A DNA stretch of 64,000 bases from an uncultured cyanobacterium (GCA_963710605.1 CAVQBA010000006.1:224001-288000); one strand, 5' to 3'; positions 1,668-28,284 are shown, numbered from the stretch's first letter. Notes: generated by a model not told the origin, from the sequence alone. A program made the numbers and translations.

Positions 1668-2780
1668 ATGTTCTTTCAAATATCTATCGATCCAAAAAAA
1701 AGAGTTAAAACTCTCACTAAAATTGTTATCGGTTATTTTTGCTTATCCTTGACTACTAGTGTGACACTTGCTCAAGAAAATACCAGCACACTTAGAGTCG
1801 CTACCAAAAACTTTCCGCCTTTTGCCTTTGAACAAAACGGACAATATGTCGGCTTTAGTATTGATTTATGGAACGAAATTGCCCAAGAATTAGATGCCAA
1901 CTCGCAAATATACGGAGAGGCAACTGTACCCGCATTATTAGAGTCAGTAAGTAATGGAGAAACAGATATTGGTATCGCAGGAATAACTATTAATCAAGAA
2001 AGAGAAAAGATAATTGATTTTTCGCACTCTTTTTATGAGTCAGGATTACAAATCATGGTTTCCACCAGCAATTTATCCCCTTGGCAAACTTTTTTTGCTT
2101 TTGTTTTTTCTCCTGTTTTATGGAGTGCGATCGTATTTTTGATAGTCGTAATCACCATCGCCGCCCATATTATTTGGTATTTTGAAAGAAAAGCTAACCC
2201 GCAAATGTTTCCGCAAACATATTTAGCCGGTGTCGGTGAGGCTTTGTGGTGGGCGGTAGTAACTGTGGTAACAGTGGGTTATGGAGATAAAACTCCTAAA
2301 GGTATTATCGGTAGAATAGTCGCCACAATTTGGATGTTTACGGGTATTTTATTAATCTCTTATTTCACCGCTTCAGTAACATCTGCTTTAACTGTGCAAA
2401 AATTAGATCAAAATATTACCACCATTCAAGACTTACACAATCAATCGATCGGTACTGTTAAAAATACTACTGCCTCAGACTTTTTAGCAACTACACCTGC
2501 TTATGTAATTGATTTTGATACCATTGAAGATGCTTATCTAGCTTTGACTGAAGGTACGATAAAAGCGATCGTTTATGATGCACCTGCACTACGTTACTAC
2601 GTCCAAGGAGAAGGTAGAGGTAAGGTTAAAGTCGTGGGTACAGTTTTTGCCCAACAAAGTTATGGTATTGCTTTACAAACAAATAGCCCTTATCGAGAAT
2701 CCATTAATCAAGCAATTCTTAAACTTAAAGAAGATGGCACTTATGGACAAATTTATCAAAAATGGTTTGGTAAAGACTAA
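1668..2780 (+). CDS. GluR0-like ligand-gated K+ channel (split substrate-binding domain around a pore)
   Basis: PPFAF/GFSIDLW SBP motifs, TM helices, K+ filter TVGYGD; ATG 1668 preferred over upstream TTG 1626. Confidence 0.85.
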   Translation: MFFQISIDPKKRVKTLTKIVIGYFCLSLTTSVTLAQENTSTLRVATKNFPPFAFEQNGQYVGFSIDLWNEIAQELDANSQIYGEATVPALLESVSNGETDIGIAGITINQEREKIIDFSHSFYESGLQIMVSTSNLSPWQTFFAFVFSPVLWSAIVFLIVVITIAAHIIWYFERKANPQMFPQTYLAGVGEALWWAVVTVVTVGYGDKTPKGIIGRIVATIWMFTGILLISYFTASVTSALTVQKLDQNITTIQDLHNQSIGTVKNTTASDFLATTPAYVIDFDTIEDAYLALTEGTIKAIVYDAPALRYYVQGEGRGKVKVVGTVFAQQSYGIALQTNSPYRESINQAILKLKEDGTYGQIYQKWFGKD

Positions 2781-2904: not shown

Positions 2905-3876
2905 TTATTTAATGCGGTGAATAACATAATTAGTTAATTCAGCCAAAGAATCAGTAGCAGGTGAAGATGACAGACATTCAATGTCTTGTAATGCTAATTG
3001 ACTGTGAGTAAATGCTAATTCTCTTGCCCTTTCAATCCCATTACTTTCATGTACTAAAGTCAATGCTTTTTCTAAATCGCCATCTTCATTAAATTCTCTT
3101 TCAATCAATGTAGTTAAAATTGGTTTTTCTTCCATAGCATACAATACAGGAATAGTTAAGTTTCCACTAGCTAAATCTGAACCTGCGGGTTTACCTAATA
3201 CTTCAGTAGAAGACGTAAAATCGATAATATCATCAACAATTTGAAAGGCTAAACCTAAGTTACGTCCATAACTATAAACTTTATCTGCTATTTTTGGAGT
3301 TTGACCACTTAATACCGCTGCGGCTTTAGCACTGTTGGCAATTAAAGAAGCAGTTTTAAAATAACTTTTTTGTAAATATGCGTCCAAAGTTACCTCTGTA
3401 TCAAAACAACTCAATCCTTGTTGAATTTCTCCCTCAGCAAAATCTCTAATCACCTCGGATAGTAATTTGACTACTTCTAAGTTATCTAAATTAGCTAAAT
3501 ACCAAGAAGATTGAGCAAAAAGAAAATCTCCTGCTAATACTGCTATACGATTACCAAAAAGTGAGTTGACTGTTTCGACTTGTCTTCTTAATTCTGCTTC
3601 ATCAACGACATCATCATGGACTAAACTTGCAGTATGAATCATCTCCGTGATTTCTGCTAAACGTCTGTGTTTAGGGCTTAAATCCTCTGTTTTCATTGTC
3701 GCACGAGATACCAGTAATACGATCGCAGGTCGAATTCTTTTACCACCAGCAGAGAACAGATGTTCTGCGGCAGCTCCCAAAATTGGATGTTGGGCTTCAA
3801 CAAGGCTAGTTAGATTATCAATTAATACGGATAAATCTTTTTCTACAGGGGCAAATATCGAGGTTGCAGTCGTCAT
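2905..3876 (-). CDS. sds: Solanesyl diphosphate synthase
   Basis: GGKRIRP, LVHDDVVD and FQIVDDIID prenyltransferase motifs. Confidence 0.93.
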   Translation of the reverse strand: MTTATSIFAPVEKDLSVLIDNLTSLVEAQHPILGAAAEHLFSAGGKRIRPAIVLLVSRATMKTEDLSPKHRRLAEITEMIHTASLVHDDVVDEAELRRQVETVNSLFGNRIAVLAGDFLFAQSSWYLANLDNLEVVKLLSEVIRDFAEGEIQQGLSCFDTEVTLDAYLQKSYFKTASLIANSAKAAAVLSGQTPKIADKVYSYGRNLGLAFQIVDDIIDFTSSTEVLGKPAGSDLASGNLTIPVLYAMEEKPILTTLIEREFNEDGDLEKALTLVHESNGIERARELAFTHSQLALQDIECLSSSPATDSLAELTNYVIHRIK

Positions 3877-4674
3877 TGATGAATAGCTTTTATAAATAAT
3901 ATTTAACGAAAGTTTACATATCTTATTGCTATTTTAAGCTATGGTTTAACAACTCGACCAAAAATCAAGAAATATTTTAGTTTTTCCGATTTTCATGAGT
4001 CTTTATACTCATTACTAGGACTAGTTTAGAGCTAATTTAAAAAAAAGTAAACTTTTTTTAATTATTGCAAAAGATATGTTATATTAAAAGTAAGAAAAGT
4101 CAATCTTAAAAAAATCTATAATTCATTAGAGATTATAGTTTCTATAGAGCATTCTGTTCTAAATCTAAACAAGTAAGAAACTTAATCTAATCACTTTATC
4201 TAGTGTGACCAATTTTCGAGATTACACAACACACTATTTTATTATTTAGTGATTTTGTAGTCAGAAAAAATATTCATTTGGTTACTGTTATAAGAATAAG
4301 TTTTAATTGACAATAGCAAAAATATTGTTTGTTGAAGATTTAATCAGTAGCTTTATAAATAACAAGTGATCAACAAAATTTGGGTAATTAAATTTTAATT
4401 ACTGAAAACAAATAAGGTGAGTAATCACCATAACTAGATTAATTTAAGTTGCCAGATAAGACTAGTGAGAAAATACTTTGATGTTAATATCCAAAGTAGT
4501 ATTTCGGATATACTTATATTTACAATCTAGTTATCTTTAAATGGTTGGTAACTAAAGTAATTAATTAGTTCTCAATAATTATTAGTTAATTCTATGATGT
4601 GAAGCAATTTGTAAATAGCTTTACTAAAAGAGTTATAGTTTGACTTTTTTTAAAATTATTTTTAGGAGAACTTC

Positions 4675-4770
4675 ATGTTGATACCGGTACTGGCTTCGTT
4701 GTACGCATTAACTATCTATTTACTTTTAGGCACAATGGCTAAAAGTCTTAATAAAAAAGAGCTTAGTTAA
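4675..4770 (+). CDS. Candidate 31-aa single-TM small protein (not in ORF track)
   Basis: AGGAG 6 nt before ATG; MLIPVLASLYALTIYLLLGTMAKSLNKKELS*. Confidence 0.5.
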   Translation: MLIPVLASLYALTIYLLLGTMAKSLNKKELS

Positions 4771-5034
4771 AAGTTAAAAGTGCTTGCGACTCACTTAATT
4801 GAGTATAAATAAAAAATATTTTCAGAGTTTTTAACTCAATTAGTTTTTGCATAGATGATCAAAATTTGTCTATTACGAAAACCAATAGTAATAATTCCAA
4901 TACAATTAAACAATTAGTCATCAAACAAGTATATCTTGATCTATATAAATCTTGAGCACTTGCTTAATGGCTAATCTTTTTTGTCTGATTATAAAAAGAT
5001 CAATGATCGATCGAACTGTAGATACAATCTAATC

Positions 5035-6455: not shown

Positions 6456-7751
6456 TTATTCTGGTATTGCCCATACTCTAATTGATGTATCAGTGCTGTA
6501 GCTAGCGATAAATTCTCTGTCGCTACTCATTGCTATATAGCCTATTGGTGCTGTATGCCCTTTTAATTTTACTAATTCTCGATTGTTAACTAAATCCCAA
6601 ACTACAATATCATAACCGTCATTACAATAAATAAAAATTCTACCATCAGCGGTTAACAAAGTAGGAGAAAAAAAAGGAAAAGACTTAATAATTTTATCGC
6701 TTTGTAATTCCCAAACACAAACGTTATCTTCTCTGATGCCACCTGCGATAATTTTTCCTTCTGGATTGATGGCTAATGAATGTACAGCAAGTAGAGGAAG
6801 ATTATCTATTTCTTGGATTAATGTACCTGTTTCTATTTCCCATAGTTGAATAACAATATGACAAGGACGTACATAAATATTAACGTAACAAACTACAACA
6901 AATTTACTGTCAGGAGTAAAAATAAAGCGAGAAGATTGATTTAAAGAAAACTCAAAGGGATTTTTTTTAACTCTTGTCTCTATATTTGAATTAAATGGAA
7001 AGGAGAGTTTATCAAATTTATAATTAAAGTATAAAGAATTAGTTTCTAGATTCCAAACATAAAATTCTCCTTCATGACCATTACACGCACTAGTCATAAT
7101 AATAGGTTTATAAGGACAAATTACTATCGAACTAAAACAATATTTATTCGTAGGTGTTGCCAGAGAATGATACTTTTGTGTTTCTATCTTTACACTTATA
7201 AGTCTCTCTTGATAGTTATAGACGCAAAGTTTTCCCTTTTCTATCAAACCTAAATCATGAGCTGAATTAACAGAGAAACTTGTTTTTAAATTAGATGTTT
7301 TTAAACACCAAGAATTAAGAAAAGAATAGTTATAATTTATATCCCAATAACAAACTAAACTCTTGTCGTACTCAGCAATACCGATAAAAAAAGGATGATA
7401 TATTGTGCCAAAATCATGTTGTTTTCTCTCATCTTTTTTCCAGCTAAAAAAATTATCGTAACTACCAAGACTGTAATCGTCAATCAAATGAATACATTGC
7501 ATTTGTGAGAAAGGCAAATGATTGTATATAATAGCATTTTTGGTAGTCTCATTATCAATCTCGGTTAATAAAATAAAAGCTGATTCTCTTACTTCCCTAA
7601 CCGAATTATTTAACATCAAAGCGACAAGTTTTATCCCTTCGTCTCCACAATCGACAGCATCAAGAAGAGCATCTATTTTCTCTTCGATTAAATTACTTTT
7701 CAAACGCTCTGTAATATTATCAATAGCTTGTTTATTTTCTTCAGAAGTCAT
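6456..7751 (-). CDS. WD40-repeat protein with N-terminal helical (HEAT-like) segment
   Basis: LKGHTAPIGYIAMSSDREFIASYSTDTSIRVW and several xxWD/WE/WN repeat ends. Confidence 0.75.
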   Translation of the reverse strand: MTSEENKQAIDNITERLKSNLIEEKIDALLDAVDCGDEGIKLVALMLNNSVREVRESAFILLTEIDNETTKNAIIYNHLPFSQMQCIHLIDDYSLGSYDNFFSWKKDERKQHDFGTIYHPFFIGIAEYDKSLVCYWDINYNYSFLNSWCLKTSNLKTSFSVNSAHDLGLIEKGKLCVYNYQERLISVKIETQKYHSLATPTNKYCFSSIVICPYKPIIMTSACNGHEGEFYVWNLETNSLYFNYKFDKLSFPFNSNIETRVKKNPFEFSLNQSSRFIFTPDSKFVVVCYVNIYVRPCHIVIQLWEIETGTLIQEIDNLPLLAVHSLAINPEGKIIAGGIREDNVCVWELQSDKIIKSFPFFSPTLLTADGRIFIYCNDGYDIVVWDLVNNRELVKLKGHTAPIGYIAMSSDREFIASYSTDTSIRVWAIPE

Positions 7752-7963
7752 TATTGATTGATGAGAATAAGTACAAACGTTTATTGGTGAAAAAACTTAA
7801 ATGTAGGGGGCAAGGTTTATGCCCTTTTTATATTTCCTTCCAAAATGAAAAACTGCCCTTCGTATATAAAAGAGCAGTTTATTTAATTAGTTATTTTAAA
7901 TAATTTTTGTTTCAATTAAGCTATTCAATTGAAAACATTGAATTAATTGTGTTTAAACTAAAC

Positions 7964-8080
7964 TTACATTGAAGAACCGATACCAGCGTAAGCACCATAG
8001 AAAAATAGTGCAACTACGCCCAAAGCACCCATTCCAGCGATCGTACCAACGATCCATAAAGGAATTTTAGCATTACCCAT
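7964..8080 (-). CDS. psbJ: Photosystem II protein J (not in ORF track)
   Basis: [46 protein letters not shown]; psbEFLJ order. Confidence 0.96.
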
Positions 8081-8112
8081 AACGAAACCTCCTAAATTAA
8101 TTAATGAATTTT

Positions 8113-17038: not shown

Positions 17039-18313
17039 TTAACTCTTTAGCAGTCTTCTGGTTTCTCCCGCCGCTTGTTGCATCGCTTTTTCTGGTGTCA
17101 TAGTTTGAGTTAATGCCGCACTCAAATACCTTTGTAAAATATCGGAGGCTTGAGCATATTGAGGAATAGGAGGGCGTAATGCCGAGCTTTCTACAACTTT
17201 TAATAAGTCAGGATAATAAGGATATTTGGCAACAATTTCTTCGTTATTAAATAAAGAAGTACGACTAGGTACGTAACCTGTTGCTAACACCATTTCTTTT
17301 TGATTCTCTTCGCTGGAGAAAAATTCGATTACTCGCCATGCTTCTGAGGGGTGAGAAGTAAACGCAGACATCCCAAAACCCCAACCACCTTGACAAGCAC
17401 CACTTTTTTCGTTGGGTTTATGCACCATCGGCTTAAGGGCAAATTTACCTGCAATCTCGGATTCAGAAGCTAATCCTGCCACATATGGCCAATTACGGAG
17501 GAAGATACTTTCGCCATTTTCAAAGATACGTCGGGTTTCTTCTTCGGCATAGGTTGTGACACCTGGAGGAGATATACCTGTTTCGATTGTTTCTAATAAA
17601 AATTGTACACCAGCGATCGCTTCTGGGGAATCTAACCCCACTTCATTAGTTTCAGGATTAATCCAATAAGCACCAAAACCTTTGAGTATCTCAACAAACA
17701 TCGCCGATAAACCTTCATATTGTTTCCCTTGCCAGAGATAACCCCATTTGGCGACATTTTTGCTTTGTAAATCTTGAGAAATTTTAATTAATTCACTAAA
17801 AGTATTTGGAGGATTATAGCCATTTTCTGCTAACAAGTCACTGCGATAATAAAGCATTCCGCCATCAGAACGAAAAGGCATTCTGTATAATGAATCTTGA
17901 TAACTTCCTCCTCTTATATCTCCTTTGAGATAAGCATCTAGATAATCAGGAGTGACAAATTCATCTAAAGGTTTTAACCATTTTGCCGCCGCAAATTTTT
18001 GCACCCAAGCAATGTCTAAATAGACTAAATCGTAAGGTGAATCTCCTAATAAAAAAGCTGAAGTATATAAATCTTCTACTATATTAGTTTGGTTTGGAGC
18101 GGTGATAATTTCTAAGTTTAGATCGGGATTATTTTGATTAAATTTATCGATTAAAAATTCTAGTCTTTGTTTTTCAAAAGCCTGCATTAAAACCGTAATT
18201 TTAGTTGGCTGTTGACTATAGCTAAGTTTGGTAAATAAAACTATAGAGAGAAAAATTGATAATACGATCCAGACTAATCTTTTTTTTAATTGTGAAAATA
18301 AATAACTAATCAT
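17039..18313 (-). CDS. Carbohydrate ABC transporter substrate-binding protein
   Basis: WQGKQYEGL, FLRNWPY; operon with two permeases. Confidence 0.9.
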   Translation of the reverse strand: MISYLFSQLKKRLVWIVLSIFLSIVLFTKLSYSQQPTKITVLMQAFEKQRLEFLIDKFNQNNPDLNLEIITAPNQTNIVEDLYTSAFLLGDSPYDLVYLDIAWVQKFAAAKWLKPLDEFVTPDYLDAYLKGDIRGGSYQDSLYRMPFRSDGGMLYYRSDLLAENGYNPPNTFSELIKISQDLQSKNVAKWGYLWQGKQYEGLSAMFVEILKGFGAYWINPETNEVGLDSPEAIAGVQFLLETIETGISPPGVTTYAEEETRRIFENGESIFLRNWPYVAGLASESEIAGKFALKPMVHKPNEKSGACQGGWGFGMSAFTSHPSEAWRVIEFFSSEENQKEMVLATGYVPSRTSLFNNEEIVAKYPYYPDLLKVVESSALRPPIPQYAQASDILQRYLSAALTQTMTPEKAMQQAAGETRRLLKS

Positions 18314-18587
18314 TATATTTATTTAATTATCGTCGTCACTAATTTTAACTTAGCTTAGATTACGATCGTATTAATAAAAAATAATTTGTCATATTTTCGT
18401 GGAGATGAAAATTAATAGTTTTACTTGTAACTAATCTTAAATATCTTTTATTGTTGGTAAATATTGATATTAATAATTTTTTTAGATTCATCGACTACAA
18501 AATATTCGGGTGCAAACCTTGCACCCCTACCTACAATTAATTGGAAATCAATATTACTTAATCGTTTTTTTCCCCATTCCCACCCTC

Positions 18588-18765
18588 ACTAAATTAGTAA
18601 ATCTATACATGGTAGTTACAGTTACAATACCCGATACTCATGTAACAATACTGAGTATTAAAGTGTAATTTAGGGAATCGAACCCATTTGGCTATGACTC
18701 TTCAGCCGTACCTAGCTAACTAATTACCCGTTAGCGAGGTTTGTATTCGCCTTTACTAATTTAGT
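18588..18765 (-). ncRNA. Candidate structured ncRNA / 3' element of the DIP1984-family gene
   Basis: Perfect 14-bp terminal inverted repeat (18588-18601 / 18752-18765) enclosing four hairpins including GGGUUCGAUUCCC T-loop. Confidence 0.6.
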
Positions 18766-18780
18766 TACCAACAAAGCAAA

Positions 18781-19239
18781 TTATTCCATTAATTCAGTTG
18801 ACCAATTCAATTGTTGTATTTTGGCATCTAATTCTCGATATTGTTTTGATAGAGCATCCGCTTGTTTTTGAATTTCTGATACTTTAACTGTACTTTTAAA
18901 TTTTACCTCGGATTTGCTATAACGATCTTGAGTAATTGTGGCTGTTTGTGCTAAATTTTTATATGCAGAGTACTTGAGCAACATAACATCTCTAGTTGCA
19001 AGTTTGTCCGCAATTGTTTTATCATCACTAACAACTGTATTGGAATTAGTTCTATTAATTTTTTGGATGATACTTTCTAACTGCCCGGATGTACTTTCTA
19101 AATCCTCTATCAATTCTTGAGGAGATTCTGAAGGAGAGTCTCCTTCTTGTACTTTGGCATTTTGCGTTAGTCTATTTTTTAAGTCGCTCAGTTTTTTTTG
19201 ATAATTAGCTCTTAATAAAAGTGCTTCAGCTAGTTTCAT
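18781..19239 (-). CDS. DIP1984-family (septicolysin-like) coiled-coil protein
   Basis: MKLAEALLLRA...NAKVQEGDSPSESP...INRTN...RYSKSEVKF...YRELDAKIQQLNW. Confidence 0.85.
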   Translation of the reverse strand: MKLAEALLLRANYQKKLSDLKNRLTQNAKVQEGDSPSESPQELIEDLESTSGQLESIIQKINRTNSNTVVSDDKTIADKLATRDVMLLKYSAYKNLAQTATITQDRYSKSEVKFKSTVKVSEIQKQADALSKQYRELDAKIQQLNWSTELME

Positions 19240-19604
19240 GTTAATGTTTTTCTTTTTTTACGAAACATATATATCTTTAATTATGTAACTATTAAAATTT
19301 AGACAAATATTTTAGTTTCATCGGTTTTTATTATTAATCATTATAATCATGTTATAACTTTTTCTAGTTACGATCGTAATTGACTATGTAACAATAATTA
19401 TTACCATAATCGATCGTGAATTAACTTTTTCAACCAGTGTTACAAACAATCTTAATCGTGATAACTAGTACATATTAGCAATAAAAATTATTGTAAGTGA
19501 TAGTGGTGTAGTCAATAAACCTTGAATATGATTATTTTGAATTAGTAAGACCAATCGTCAAAGTATTCATAGTATATAATTACTAAAAATACTTATAAGC
19601 AAAA

Positions 19605-21308
19605 ATGTCAGAAATCACTAATGCAGTCAAAAGAATTGCTAACATTGCTAGAAACAAAAATTGGAGTAATCTACCAGCAATATCTCTAATTTATTCTGGG
19701 GAATATCAAGACATCCCTTCAGGAAAAATCAAGCCAGAACAACTAACACAGGAACAACTAAAATATATAGATGATGTTTTTGGTGATTTTCAGCCATATT
19801 TAACCAAAGAAAAAATAGAAAACAAAGTCAAGACATATCCCTTTAAACTTCCTCAAGAATTTTATGAATTGTATCAACTAGGTAATGGTTGTCTTCCTTT
19901 TGATGTTATAGATGAATCACAAAACGATCGCAAAAAGTCGAGCTCAATTTATGACTACTTTTATTTTCCTAATCCTGATGATAAATTATTAGATTTACAT
20001 TCAATTATGAATTTTTATTCTCGTACCAAATATGCAGTTTGAATACTTAGAAAATAAATATTAGTAGCATTGGATGGAATCCAATATTATTCCTCTAAAA
20101 AGATTTATTGTCCTCATTGTAATTGTCGCAATCATAGAAATGGTGAAACAACTTATTATCATCAAGTAATTACTCCAGTTATCGTCTCACCAAACAAAAA
20201 ACAAGTAATTAACTTAGAGCCTGAATTTATTAGAAAACAGGATGGTAAAACGAAGCAAGATTGTGAAAACGTAGCGGTAAAAAGGTGGTTATTACGAAAT
20301 TCAAATGACCAAGAAAAAAATCAAATAACCTTATTGGGAGATGATCTTTATTCTCGTCAGCCAATATGTGAATTAGCGATAAAACAAGGATATAATTTTA
20401 TATTTGTGGCTTTACCATCATCTCATAAAAGTTTATATGAATGGCTTGATTTTTTAGAAAAAAATGAAGAAATAAAGAAAGGAGAAATCAAAAAATATGA
20501 AAAAGGAAGACCGATAATTTATCGTTATAAGTATGTAAATAATGTACCAATGAGAGAAAAAAAGCCAAGCTTAATGGTCAATTGGTATGAGGTCGAGATA
20601 ATTGATAGAATTAAGAATAAAGTAATTTATTATAATAGCTTTATCACTAATCATAAATTAAAAGAAGACAATATATTAGTAATAATAAAAGGGGGAAGAA
20701 CAAGATGGAAAGTAGAAAATGAAGGTAATAATATCTTGAAAAATCAAGGATATAATTTTGAACATAATTTTGGTCATGGGCAAGAGAATTTGTCCGAAAT
20801 ATTGTTATCATTAAATCTACTAGGATTTCTCTTTCACAATGTTTTAGAATTAGTGAATGTTAACTATCAAAAAATTAGAGACAAATTAGTGAGGAGAAAA
20901 ACATTTTTTAATGATATAAGAGCGTTATTGAAATATATATGGTTTGAAAGTTGGCAGGATTTATTCATATTTGTACTAACGGAAGGAGAAGAAAGAAAGT
21001 TAATCAACACAAGTTAAAAAGAGAAAAAATAAACAGTAAATTCTCCTTTACTACCTATTTTTATGTATTTAGATGCTGGAGAGTATTATCTATGTTTGGA
21101 AGGAAGTAATCAACAAGAAGAAACTTCTTCGTTATCGTTAACAATTCATGGAGGAGATTTGAGTTTTGACGTAATAGAAGAAATGTGGCCCAGTCTTACT
21201 AATATGATATTAGCCTATGCTCAATTACAAGAAACAAAAGATTTGAAAAAAGATATTTATGAAGAGTATGGTAGCTGTTGTGAGTATGCAGATGATTTTT
21301 TTACATAA
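19605..21308 (+). pseudogene. SMI1/KNR4-like protein split by a transposase fragment (5' part 19605-~20033, 3' part ~21039-21308)
   Basis: 5' part YPFKLPQEFYELYQLGNG; 3' part NSPLLPIFMYLDAGEYY...WPSLTNMILAYA, together the cyanobacterial SMI1/KNR4 pattern. Confidence 0.6.
20034..21017 (+). mobile_element. 5'-truncated ISNCY-type DDE transposase
   Basis: LVALDGIQYYSSKKIYCPHC, KQDCE, LLGDDLY, GRTRWKVENEGNNILK, EHNFGHG; N-terminus absent, extra frameshift near 20055. Confidence 0.85.
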
Positions 21309-28213: not shown

Positions 28214-28284
28214 AGGCGACACCCAGATTCGAACTGGGGATAGAGGTTTTGCAGACCTCGGCCTTACCACTTGGCGATGTCGCC
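28214..28284 (-). tRNA. trnC: tRNA-Cys(GCA), CCA not encoded
   Basis: GGCGACA-TCGCCAAGTGGTAAGGC-CGAGGTCTGCAAAACCTC-TATC-CCCAGTTCGAATCTGGG-TGTCGCC-T. Confidence 0.97.

Follow-up and report, generated by a model that had tools for sequence, protein, structure and literature searches.

The 64,000-nt stretch of DNA from an uncultured cyanobacterium analysed here (CAVQBA010000006.1:224001-288000 of assembly GCA_963710605.1; in the following, the window) carries on its minus strand a gene of the DIP1984 family (18781-19239) and, beginning directly past its stop codon, a conserved structured RNA of 212 nt (18569-18780). This DIP1984-associated RNA represents an undescribed and uncatalogued family, which shows a strict one-to-one linkage to the gene across two domains of life and plasmids and recurs in a setting of RNA repair and tRNA genes. 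Gene and RNA together make up a single module, which is conserved and horizontally mobile. With regard to its function, the chances are about even that a particle of DIP1984 and the RNA works like that of Ro60 and Y RNA during RNA damage or translational stress, where both the binding and the function are inferred.

The element of the window matched the RNA model R1 over model positions 1-212 (159.1 bits, E 4.3e-48) and, located directly 3' of the DIP1984 gene, contains a closing stem as well as the pseudoknot and a tail of the form GAGGG-Y-GGG. In a preliminary description of this region, a closing stem P1 and four hairpins (18740-18710, 18707-18690, 18685-18673 and 18658-18634) had been reported, and all of them are present at these positions. 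The ends of P1 were also given correctly, but the conserved element runs from 18569 to 18780, so that its tail lies outside the earlier start at 18588. Read on the minus strand, the word GGUA (18769-18766; GGTA[GAC] in 92 of 96 copies) precedes the 5' strand of P1, ACUAAAUUAGUAAA (18765-18752), which pairs perfectly over 14 bp with the 3' strand at 18601-18588. The internal loop consists of the word GGCG (18751-18748; [AG]GCG[AG] in 95 of 96 copies) and the bases GA (18603-18602), and is followed by stem P2 (18747-18743 with 18608-18604). The pseudoknot region (18740-18710) contains stem S2, formed by GCUAAC (18735-18730) and GUUAGC (18720-18715); beside it, ACCU (18740-18737) can pair with GGGU of the S2 loop (18729-18726) or with AGGU (18713-18710). 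The hairpin GGCUG/UAGCC (18707-18690) is, according to covariation, the homologue of a D-arm-like hairpin of the family, with a loop that is not G-rich, unlike the GGGG type of most relatives. It is followed by the T-arm-like hairpin GGG-UUCGAUU-CCC (18685-18673), recognised by its sequence and by the conservation of motif and helix, and by a mostly unpaired, highly conserved core that contains CUACC and recurring GU-N-AC words (18658-18611; alignments A6 and A7), inside which the hairpin AUACUCA/UGAGUAU (18658-18634) is located. The near-invariant G-rich 3' tail GAGGGUGGGAAUGGGG (18587-18572) was recognised by motif counts and invariant alignment columns.

Selection on this fold was evident from comparison with homologues. 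In alignment A6, which comprises 78 homologous RNAs, 33 nested pairs in six helices were scored; as controls, the pairing partners were slid by 1-3 columns, or the sequences were shuffled (n=500). Over the 33 pairs, 92.1% of the cells were paired (slid controls 32.1-43.4%), changes on both sides occurred in 32 pairs (483 cells), and none of the 500 shuffles reached the observed measures of pairing and covariation. Compensatory changes were visible in the first alignment of the relatives' elements as well. P1 showed both-sided changes at all 14 pairs and P2 (97.7% paired) at all five; by these 19 covarying pairs, the two ends of the RNA form a long stem closing a tRNA-like module with a T-loop. 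Stem S2 (91.7% paired) and the D-arm-like helix (93.2%) covary at five of five pairs each, and the T-arm helix is paired in 90.5% across the family. The earlier judgement that the structure is far more elaborate than a terminator is supported by this comparative fold. The minimum-energy fold of the window RNA reproduced the 14-bp closing stem, but its energy (-52.7 kcal/mol vs -43.1 ± 3.8 in shuffles, z -2.55) is only moderately unusual and weak evidence by itself, as 4 of 200 shuffles fold as stably. Thus, it is the comparative evidence from the 78 homologues, and not the energy of a single sequence, which places the element beyond chance.

G-U pairs are numerous (one pair of P1 is G-U in 50 of the 78 sequences), which fits an RNA fold on the strand of the gene. 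This bears on the explanation that the element acts at the level of DNA, as a miniature inverted-repeat transposable element (MITE), an attachment site or the remnant of a tRNA gene. The 14-bp terminal inverted repeats and the T-arm-like piece would fit such an element, but the compensatory changes and the many G-U pairs preserve an RNA fold on one strand, and ARAGORN was negative. In addition, the whole 3.93-Mb assembly of the window contains one full-length copy, which is linked to the gene; the 27 other blastn matches were at most 26 nt long, with E values of at least 0.37. Single copy and covariation refute a MITE, and the chance of any DNA-level explanation is negligible.

The comparison also changed the picture of the individual parts. 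S2, the stem of the first of the four hairpins, covaries, but the form common to the family is an H-type pseudoknot, and the ACCU/AGGU pairing described earlier is restricted to the window. In 71 of 86 distinct sequences, the bases 5' of S2 form a helix of 4 bp or more with the S2 loop, termed S1; the mean number of its pairs is 4.06, as compared with 2.88 in shuffles. Because the pairs of S1 differ among the sequences (ACCC/GGGU, GCCC/GGGC, AGCU/AGCU, CGGC/GCCG), it argues for this H-type pseudoknot. Three of the four hairpins have counterparts in the family, but the fourth (18658-18634) is paired in 53% of the cells and is therefore specific to the window. The T-arm loop, although present in the window, occurs in only 66 of 96 copies (motif GGTTC[AG]A..CC), while a D-like loop word of the GGGG type was found in 88. 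The tail motif GAGGG[TC]GGG is present in 91 of the 96 copies, in 89 of them with the following GGGG; seven of its columns are invariant in A6, out of 17 invariant columns in the whole RNA of bacteria and archaea. The word GAGGGTGGG occurs about 200 nt past the gene in exact form in 59 of 80 loci and in a relaxed form in 74. A candidate core hairpin of GCCC with GGGC is 70-95% paired and hardly varies, and covariation does not choose between the conserved CCC and CUACC as partner of the tail. When the lengths of the 96 copies are sorted by their remainder modulo 3, the three classes are about equally filled (32, 37 and 27), which makes a conserved small open reading frame (ORF) unlikely; long stop-free stretches in GC-rich copies are uninformative on coding. 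These observations show an RNA fold under selection, which consists of a closing stem, an internal loop, an H-type pseudoknot, a D-arm-like hairpin, usually a T-arm, an unpaired core and a G-rich tail.

This fold does not correspond to any family in the catalogues that were searched. Rfam 15 gave no relevant match at E ≤ 10 in window positions 17500-20500 or in the loci of three relatives, and none on the element at E ≤ 1 in ten loci of other phyla. The only match to the tmRNA model (RF00023) was a 15-nt piece of the T-arm in the relative L032, with 12.8 bits at a threshold of 47. ARAGORN called no tRNA or tmRNA on the element, its sole call in the window being a tRNA-Cys at 28214-28284, and the YrlA model RF02553 (gathering score 69 bits) had no match in the window region, the loci of the relatives or the genome of the window. 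The RNA is therefore neither a YrlA, a tRNA, a tmRNA nor a MITE; it is also not an RNA of a type III toxin-antitoxin system (see below). tmRNA, which acts together with SmpB, likewise folds into a structure that includes a T-arm and pseudoknots, and its gene often lies beside that of this small protein partner; the DIP1984 RNA differs from it in having neither an acceptor end nor a tag reading frame. No published link between the DIP1984 family and an RNA was found in the literature, a search to which Burroughs and Aravind (2016) and supplements did not belong.

A self-processing or otherwise catalytic RNA, with the protein as a helper, would also account for the many invariant bases that are unpaired and for the compact core with its pseudoknot, which are conserved in two domains of life, all the more as the RNA must be released from a longer transcript. 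However, conserved single strands are equally expected for contacts with proteins, no ribozyme family of Rfam 15 was matched, and no cleavage site can be named from the sequence, so that we regard catalysis as very unlikely.

The linkage of RNA and gene was followed through several collections of genomes. A protein search yielded 2159 relatives of DIP1984 at E ≤ 1e-5, and from a scan with one genome per species 80 of 513 confirmed loci were kept. The 80 loci belong to Chloroflexota, Acidobacteriota, Deinococcota, Actinomycetota, Armatimonadota, Planctomycetota, Pseudomonadota and cyanobacteria, and include those of the archaea Methanocella and Methanoregula. When 60 relatives were searched with the nucleotide sequence, the gene and, separately, the 3' half of the element were matched in other families of the same order. 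Model R1, which was built from 78 homologues, gave 96 matches (E ≤ 0.01) in 95 of 97 sources, all of them 3' of the gene and on the same strand. Together with the covariation in 32 of 33 pairs, this confirms a conserved structure downstream of the homologues. The two loci that were missed are both located at contig ends, and one other locus contained only a 15.6-bit fragment.

The same agreement was observed within whole genomes. Among 61 cyanobacterial genomes (that of the window and 60 relatives), ten contain the gene, and the identical ten carry one strong RNA match beside it, one pair being divided by a contig break; the only additional match was a 22.4-bit scrap in a genome that is 61% complete. 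Of 101 genomes around an acidobacterial carrier, two contain the gene and the same two contain the RNA, and each carrier genome searched showed one match to the RNA model. The gene is sparse in cyanobacteria (14 of 401 sampled genomes). The element was present in 15 of 16 extracted cyanobacterial loci, and the sixteenth ends at a contig edge and has its element on another contig. The window protein shows about 60% identity to proteins of Chloroflexota and Acidobacteriota, but about 50% to cyanobacterial ones, and this closer kinship fits a horizontal transfer. Furthermore, 371 plasmid records contain the gene, 342 of them from Acinetobacter. In all four plasmid records examined, the RNA follows the gene directly (Picosynechococcus, 111.4 bits; Streptomyces, 96.5 bits; Enterococcus faecium, 44.3 bits; Acinetobacter baumannii, 20.3 bits), i.e. 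it accompanies even distant members of the DIP1984 family. Among cultured, harmless bacteria, Picosynechococcus sp. PCC 7117 carries the RNA (L145, 4460-4674), and Deinococcus radiodurans possesses the gene. In the planctomycete Candidatus Uabimicrobium amorphum (L107), the DIP1984 gene is succeeded by two RNAs in tandem (3466-3672 and 3686-3880; 145.3 and 95.5 bits).

In the window, no sigma-70-like site was found between gene and RNA, while candidates are located upstream of the gene. The earlier statement that a U-tract is lacking is true of the element itself, but a terminator-like hairpin with a U-run (18526-18508, minus strand) follows as the probable end of the gene-plus-RNA transcript. 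Gene and RNA are therefore probably co-transcribed, as had been proposed. The segment 18500-18562, which holds this hairpin, is a dispersed repeat: it matched seven further sites of the genome (at 78-100% identity, over 24-63 nt) as well as three in the relative G010.

The same arrangement, in which the element begins directly past the stop codon, is followed by the terminator-like site and is never apart from the gene in the genome searches, would also result if the RNA were a structured 3' untranslated region (UTR) acting only in cis, which stabilises the DIP1984 mRNA or permits autoregulation and gives rise to no separate stable RNA. However, known 3' stabilisers require far less than an RNA of 212 nt that has a pseudoknot, tRNA-like arms and 17 invariant columns, and the two tandem copies in L107 also speak against such a role. 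Moreover, in the loci L079 and L097 gene and RNA lie within an array of tRNA genes, with the flanking tRNA genes 13-26 nt away and a tRNA-Gln after the RNA, so that tRNA processing would release the RNA. An exclusive role in cis is thus unlikely, even if it retains some weight.

The DIP1984 protein comprises 152 aa and was assigned to its family, as before, with scores far above the cut-offs (NF038048, 188.5 bits, cut-off 70; PF20935/DUF6847, 183.2 bits, cut-off 27). Its sequence matched the Protein Data Bank (PDB) entry 3kdq (E 1.2e-38), and the AF2 model is a four-helix protein (pLDDT 92.9) for which 3kdq was the sole significant match in the fold search (TM-score 0.94-0.95). The oligomer proposed earlier takes the form of a predicted dimer: the two-copy model scored 0.77 against 0.01 for the best control, a mark attained by 20 of 30 solved pairs, but also by 1 of 23 single chains, and the runs agreed in at least 97% of the contacts, with a pLDDT of the partner of at least 90.

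The preliminary description had also considered the pair as type III toxin-antitoxin-like or as a defence module, with a toxic DIP1984 that the RNA would neutralise or for which it would act as a sensor. In type III systems such as ToxIN, tandem RNA repeats are located upstream of the gene of an endoribonuclease toxin. The two systems share the combination of an RNA with the gene of a small protein on a single transcript. The patchy distribution in cyanobacterial genomes and on plasmids suggests a horizontal transfer, which would fit such a module; the Picosynechococcus plasmid is annotated with PIN, MazF and nucleotidyltransferase/DUF86 genes nearby, and the ORFs flanking the module in the cyanobacterium G041 are HicAB-like by eye. 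In contrast to type III systems, however, a single RNA without tandem repeats is located downstream of a gene for a helical protein, and the fold search with the DIP1984 model gave no nuclease-like fold. PADLOC showed no match for the gene or its three neighbours, only 5 of 50,697 phage records contain the gene, and the control by RtcR and sigma-54 together with RtcB fits RNA repair better. Neither of the two earlier proposals is therefore supported, and a toxin-antitoxin or anti-phage function is considered unlikely.

This control became apparent from the neighbourhoods of the gene, which were counted by tblastn over 96 loci in a range of 3 kb. RtcB was found in nine loci, RtcR in four, a Ro60-like von Willebrand factor A (vWA) protein of about 480-490 aa in nine and a DRB0094-type RNA ligase in two. 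In L094 and L099, a divergent rtcR is followed by a promoter, DIP1984, the RNA, small ORFs and RtcB. The promoter, with GG-N10-GC about 45 nt before the DIP1984 start codon, is presumably of the sigma-54 type. The RtcB of an RtcR-type operon is the sole RtcB of its genome in the one carrier genome that was checked. In L094, a HEPN_AbiU2-like ORF (4452-4838, E 1.3e-6) is located between the RNA and RtcB of the RtcR-controlled operon.

Beside the repair genes, tRNA genes are frequent neighbours. ARAGORN detected at least one tRNA gene within 3 kb in 26 of the 80 loci, and same-strand arrays of 5-27 tRNA genes in 19 (L067, L071, L072, L074, L078, L079, L084, L087, L093, L097, L098, L105, L106, L114, L116, L119, L121, L126 and L133). 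In acidobacterial loci the arrays stop just upstream of the DIP1984 gene, RtcB is located upstream of the array in several loci, and L124 also contains an HNH gene. A tRNA-Ile(tat) of unusual length (90-96 nt) is part of several arrays. Parts of two publications describe long tRNA arrays as horizontally spread, with RtcB and HNH endonuclease genes nearby, and report for Anabaena that an array is induced with rtcB and the HNH gene when translation is impaired (PMC8421152, PMC10272220). [quoted passage not shown] In the passages in question, neither DIP1984 nor a structured RNA accompanying the arrays is mentioned, and the term 'septicolysin' is absent from PMC8421152.

The third kind of neighbour, the cyanobacterial vWA protein, was recognised by its fold: its top 13 Foldseek matches were all Ro60/Rsr/TROVE proteins over the full length (E 8.7e-8 to 2e-4). 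According to parts of PMC7790460 and bioRxiv 10.1101/312249, rsr and Y RNAs hold the slot in the RtcR/sigma-54 operon with RtcB in Salmonella. As far as these parts describe the system, it resembles the one studied here in several respects: the RNA is encoded beside the gene of a dedicated protein, the ends of the RNA pair in a long stem, the internal module contains a tRNA-type T-loop and a D-like hairpin, and in L094 and L099 the DIP1984 pair is the first in an RtcR/sigma-54 operon with RtcB. However, DIP1984 is a 152-aa helical protein and not a TROVE ring, and the DIP1984 RNA differs by its H-type pseudoknot and invariant G-rich tail, by the absence of a T-arm in 30 of 96 copies and by the lack of a match to RF02553. 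A second comparable system is a Band-7 (SPFH) protein, for which a part of bioRxiv 10.1101/312249 proposes a role as scaffold with its cognate, predicted tRNA-like b7a-tRNA in RtcB operons. Scaffold-type protein and tRNA-like RNA beside RtcB are common features, although the b7a-tRNA is described there as strongly tRNA-like, whereas the DIP1984 RNA was called neither by ARAGORN nor by the Rfam tRNA model.

Given these likenesses, the RNA might belong to the Y RNAs as a divergent member, with the Ro60-like protein as its true partner and DIP1984 as an accessory. The Ro60-like gene near DIP1984 in nine of the 96 loci and the resemblance of closing stem and tRNA-like module to YrlA, as partly set out in bioRxiv 10.1101/312249, are consistent with this. 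Most loci, however, do not contain a Ro60-like gene within 3 kb, TROVE was not found in the genome of the window (84.9% complete), YrlA was not matched, and the RNA is linked to DIP1984 in every case. An identity as Y RNA is accordingly improbable.

We favour instead a particle of DIP1984 and its RNA that would be analogous to Ro60 with Y RNA. The neighbourhoods, i.e. RtcR/RtcB operons, tRNA arrays and Ro60-like genes, point to RNA repair and tRNA biology. The RNA would be made from the transcript of the gene, which in some relatives would be a tRNA precursor, and would be bound by the DIP1984 dimer; the repeated GU-N-AC words, proposed earlier as the sites of binding, are candidates for this contact. 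The protein would sit on the closed stem, while the conserved single strands and the tRNA-like elbow might contact broken tRNAs or enzymes that handle tRNA, for instance RtcB. When RNA is damaged or translation stalls, the particle would thereby act as a scaffold, an adaptor or a decoy, comparable to Ro60 with its Y RNA (YrlA).

Several observations weigh against such a particle. The nearest neighbours of the module vary widely: a given Pfam family was found in at most 4 of 77 upstream and 3 of 77 downstream ORFs, the only recurring upstream families being sigma-54 activator domains (4/77) and RtcR (3/77). Loci with RtcB, RtcR or tRNA arrays are restricted to Acidobacteriota and those with the Ro60-like protein to cyanobacteria and one Rubrobacter, so that few independent events may underlie them. 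The model of the Ro60-like protein is of low confidence (pLDDT 63.3, TM 0.33-0.38), and its sequence profile compared with PDB sequences gave no TROVE match, which leaves the fold search as the basis of its assignment. In the window, no repair gene was found beside the module, and its genome yielded no TROVE, as mentioned. On the side of the RNA, the T-arm is missing in almost a third of the copies (30 of 96), and a stem P3 that would enclose the D-like and T hairpins was rejected (3.41 bp vs 3.65 in shuffles). On the side of the protein, the fold search gave no match to any RNA-binding protein, and the family is not basic, with a near-neutral median pI of 5.7 and 14 conserved K/R positions. 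The pass of the dimer model may reflect 3kdq, because this structure was solved with four chains.

A related, but quite doubtful proposal is that the RNA stands in as a sentinel or decoy when toxins cut RNA; it would be cut instead of, or along with, tRNA and rRNA and would act as a reusable sensor of damage. The targets that it exposes would be tRNA-like or other conserved single-stranded ones, including three conserved words with ACA, as well as words that are found at the 3' end of the 16S rRNA of the window genome (GUAACAAGGUAGCC). Fragments with 2',3'-cyclic phosphate might then switch on RtcR, and RtcB would reseal the RNA while DIP1984 holds the pieces together.

The 3' region of the 16S rRNA from the window genome (L148, 1497-1550), which reads GUAACAAGGUAGCC, was compared with window positions 18769-18611. 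The near-invariant words GU-N-ACAAG and GGUAG(C) of the RNA, located at separate places, are shared with the 16S end; they are short, and their occurrence by chance is possible.

The new results are the uncatalogued RNA family tied to DIP1984 and its recurring setting of repair and tRNA genes. Few structured RNAs of such size and of such conservation from bacteria to archaea lack a catalogue entry or a function, and the crystal structure 3kdq of DIP1984 has been unexplained since 2009. The gene, which is present on hundreds of sequenced Acinetobacter plasmids, is still mislabelled as 'septicolysin' or 'hypothetical'. The settings with RtcR/RtcB, tRNA arrays and Ro60-like genes bear on the targets of bacterial RNA repair and on the role of its RNA cofactors. 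If the particle of DIP1984 and its RNA exists as proposed, it would be a third protein-plus-RNA pair besides Ro60-Y RNA and Band-7-b7a-tRNA; a sentinel RNA, if true, would be a sensor of RNA damage unlike any described system.

Some further genes were observed near the module. In the cyanobacterial locus L030 (genome G041), an AT-rich tRNA-Met(cat) (1702-1773, minus strand), which was detected by the Rfam tRNA model (48.1 bits) and by ARAGORN, is located between a promoter-like stretch and DIP1984. In L048 (genome G044), and in this locus only, an ORF of 144 aa without family match (7667-8101) lies between the Ro60-like gene and DIP1984. In the window, an ORF of 315 aa (20070-21017) had no match in Pfam, NCBIfam or PADLOC, and the same applies to the ORFs flanking it on both sides (19605-20042 and 21063-21308); the arrangement suggests a mobile gene that may have interrupted another gene.

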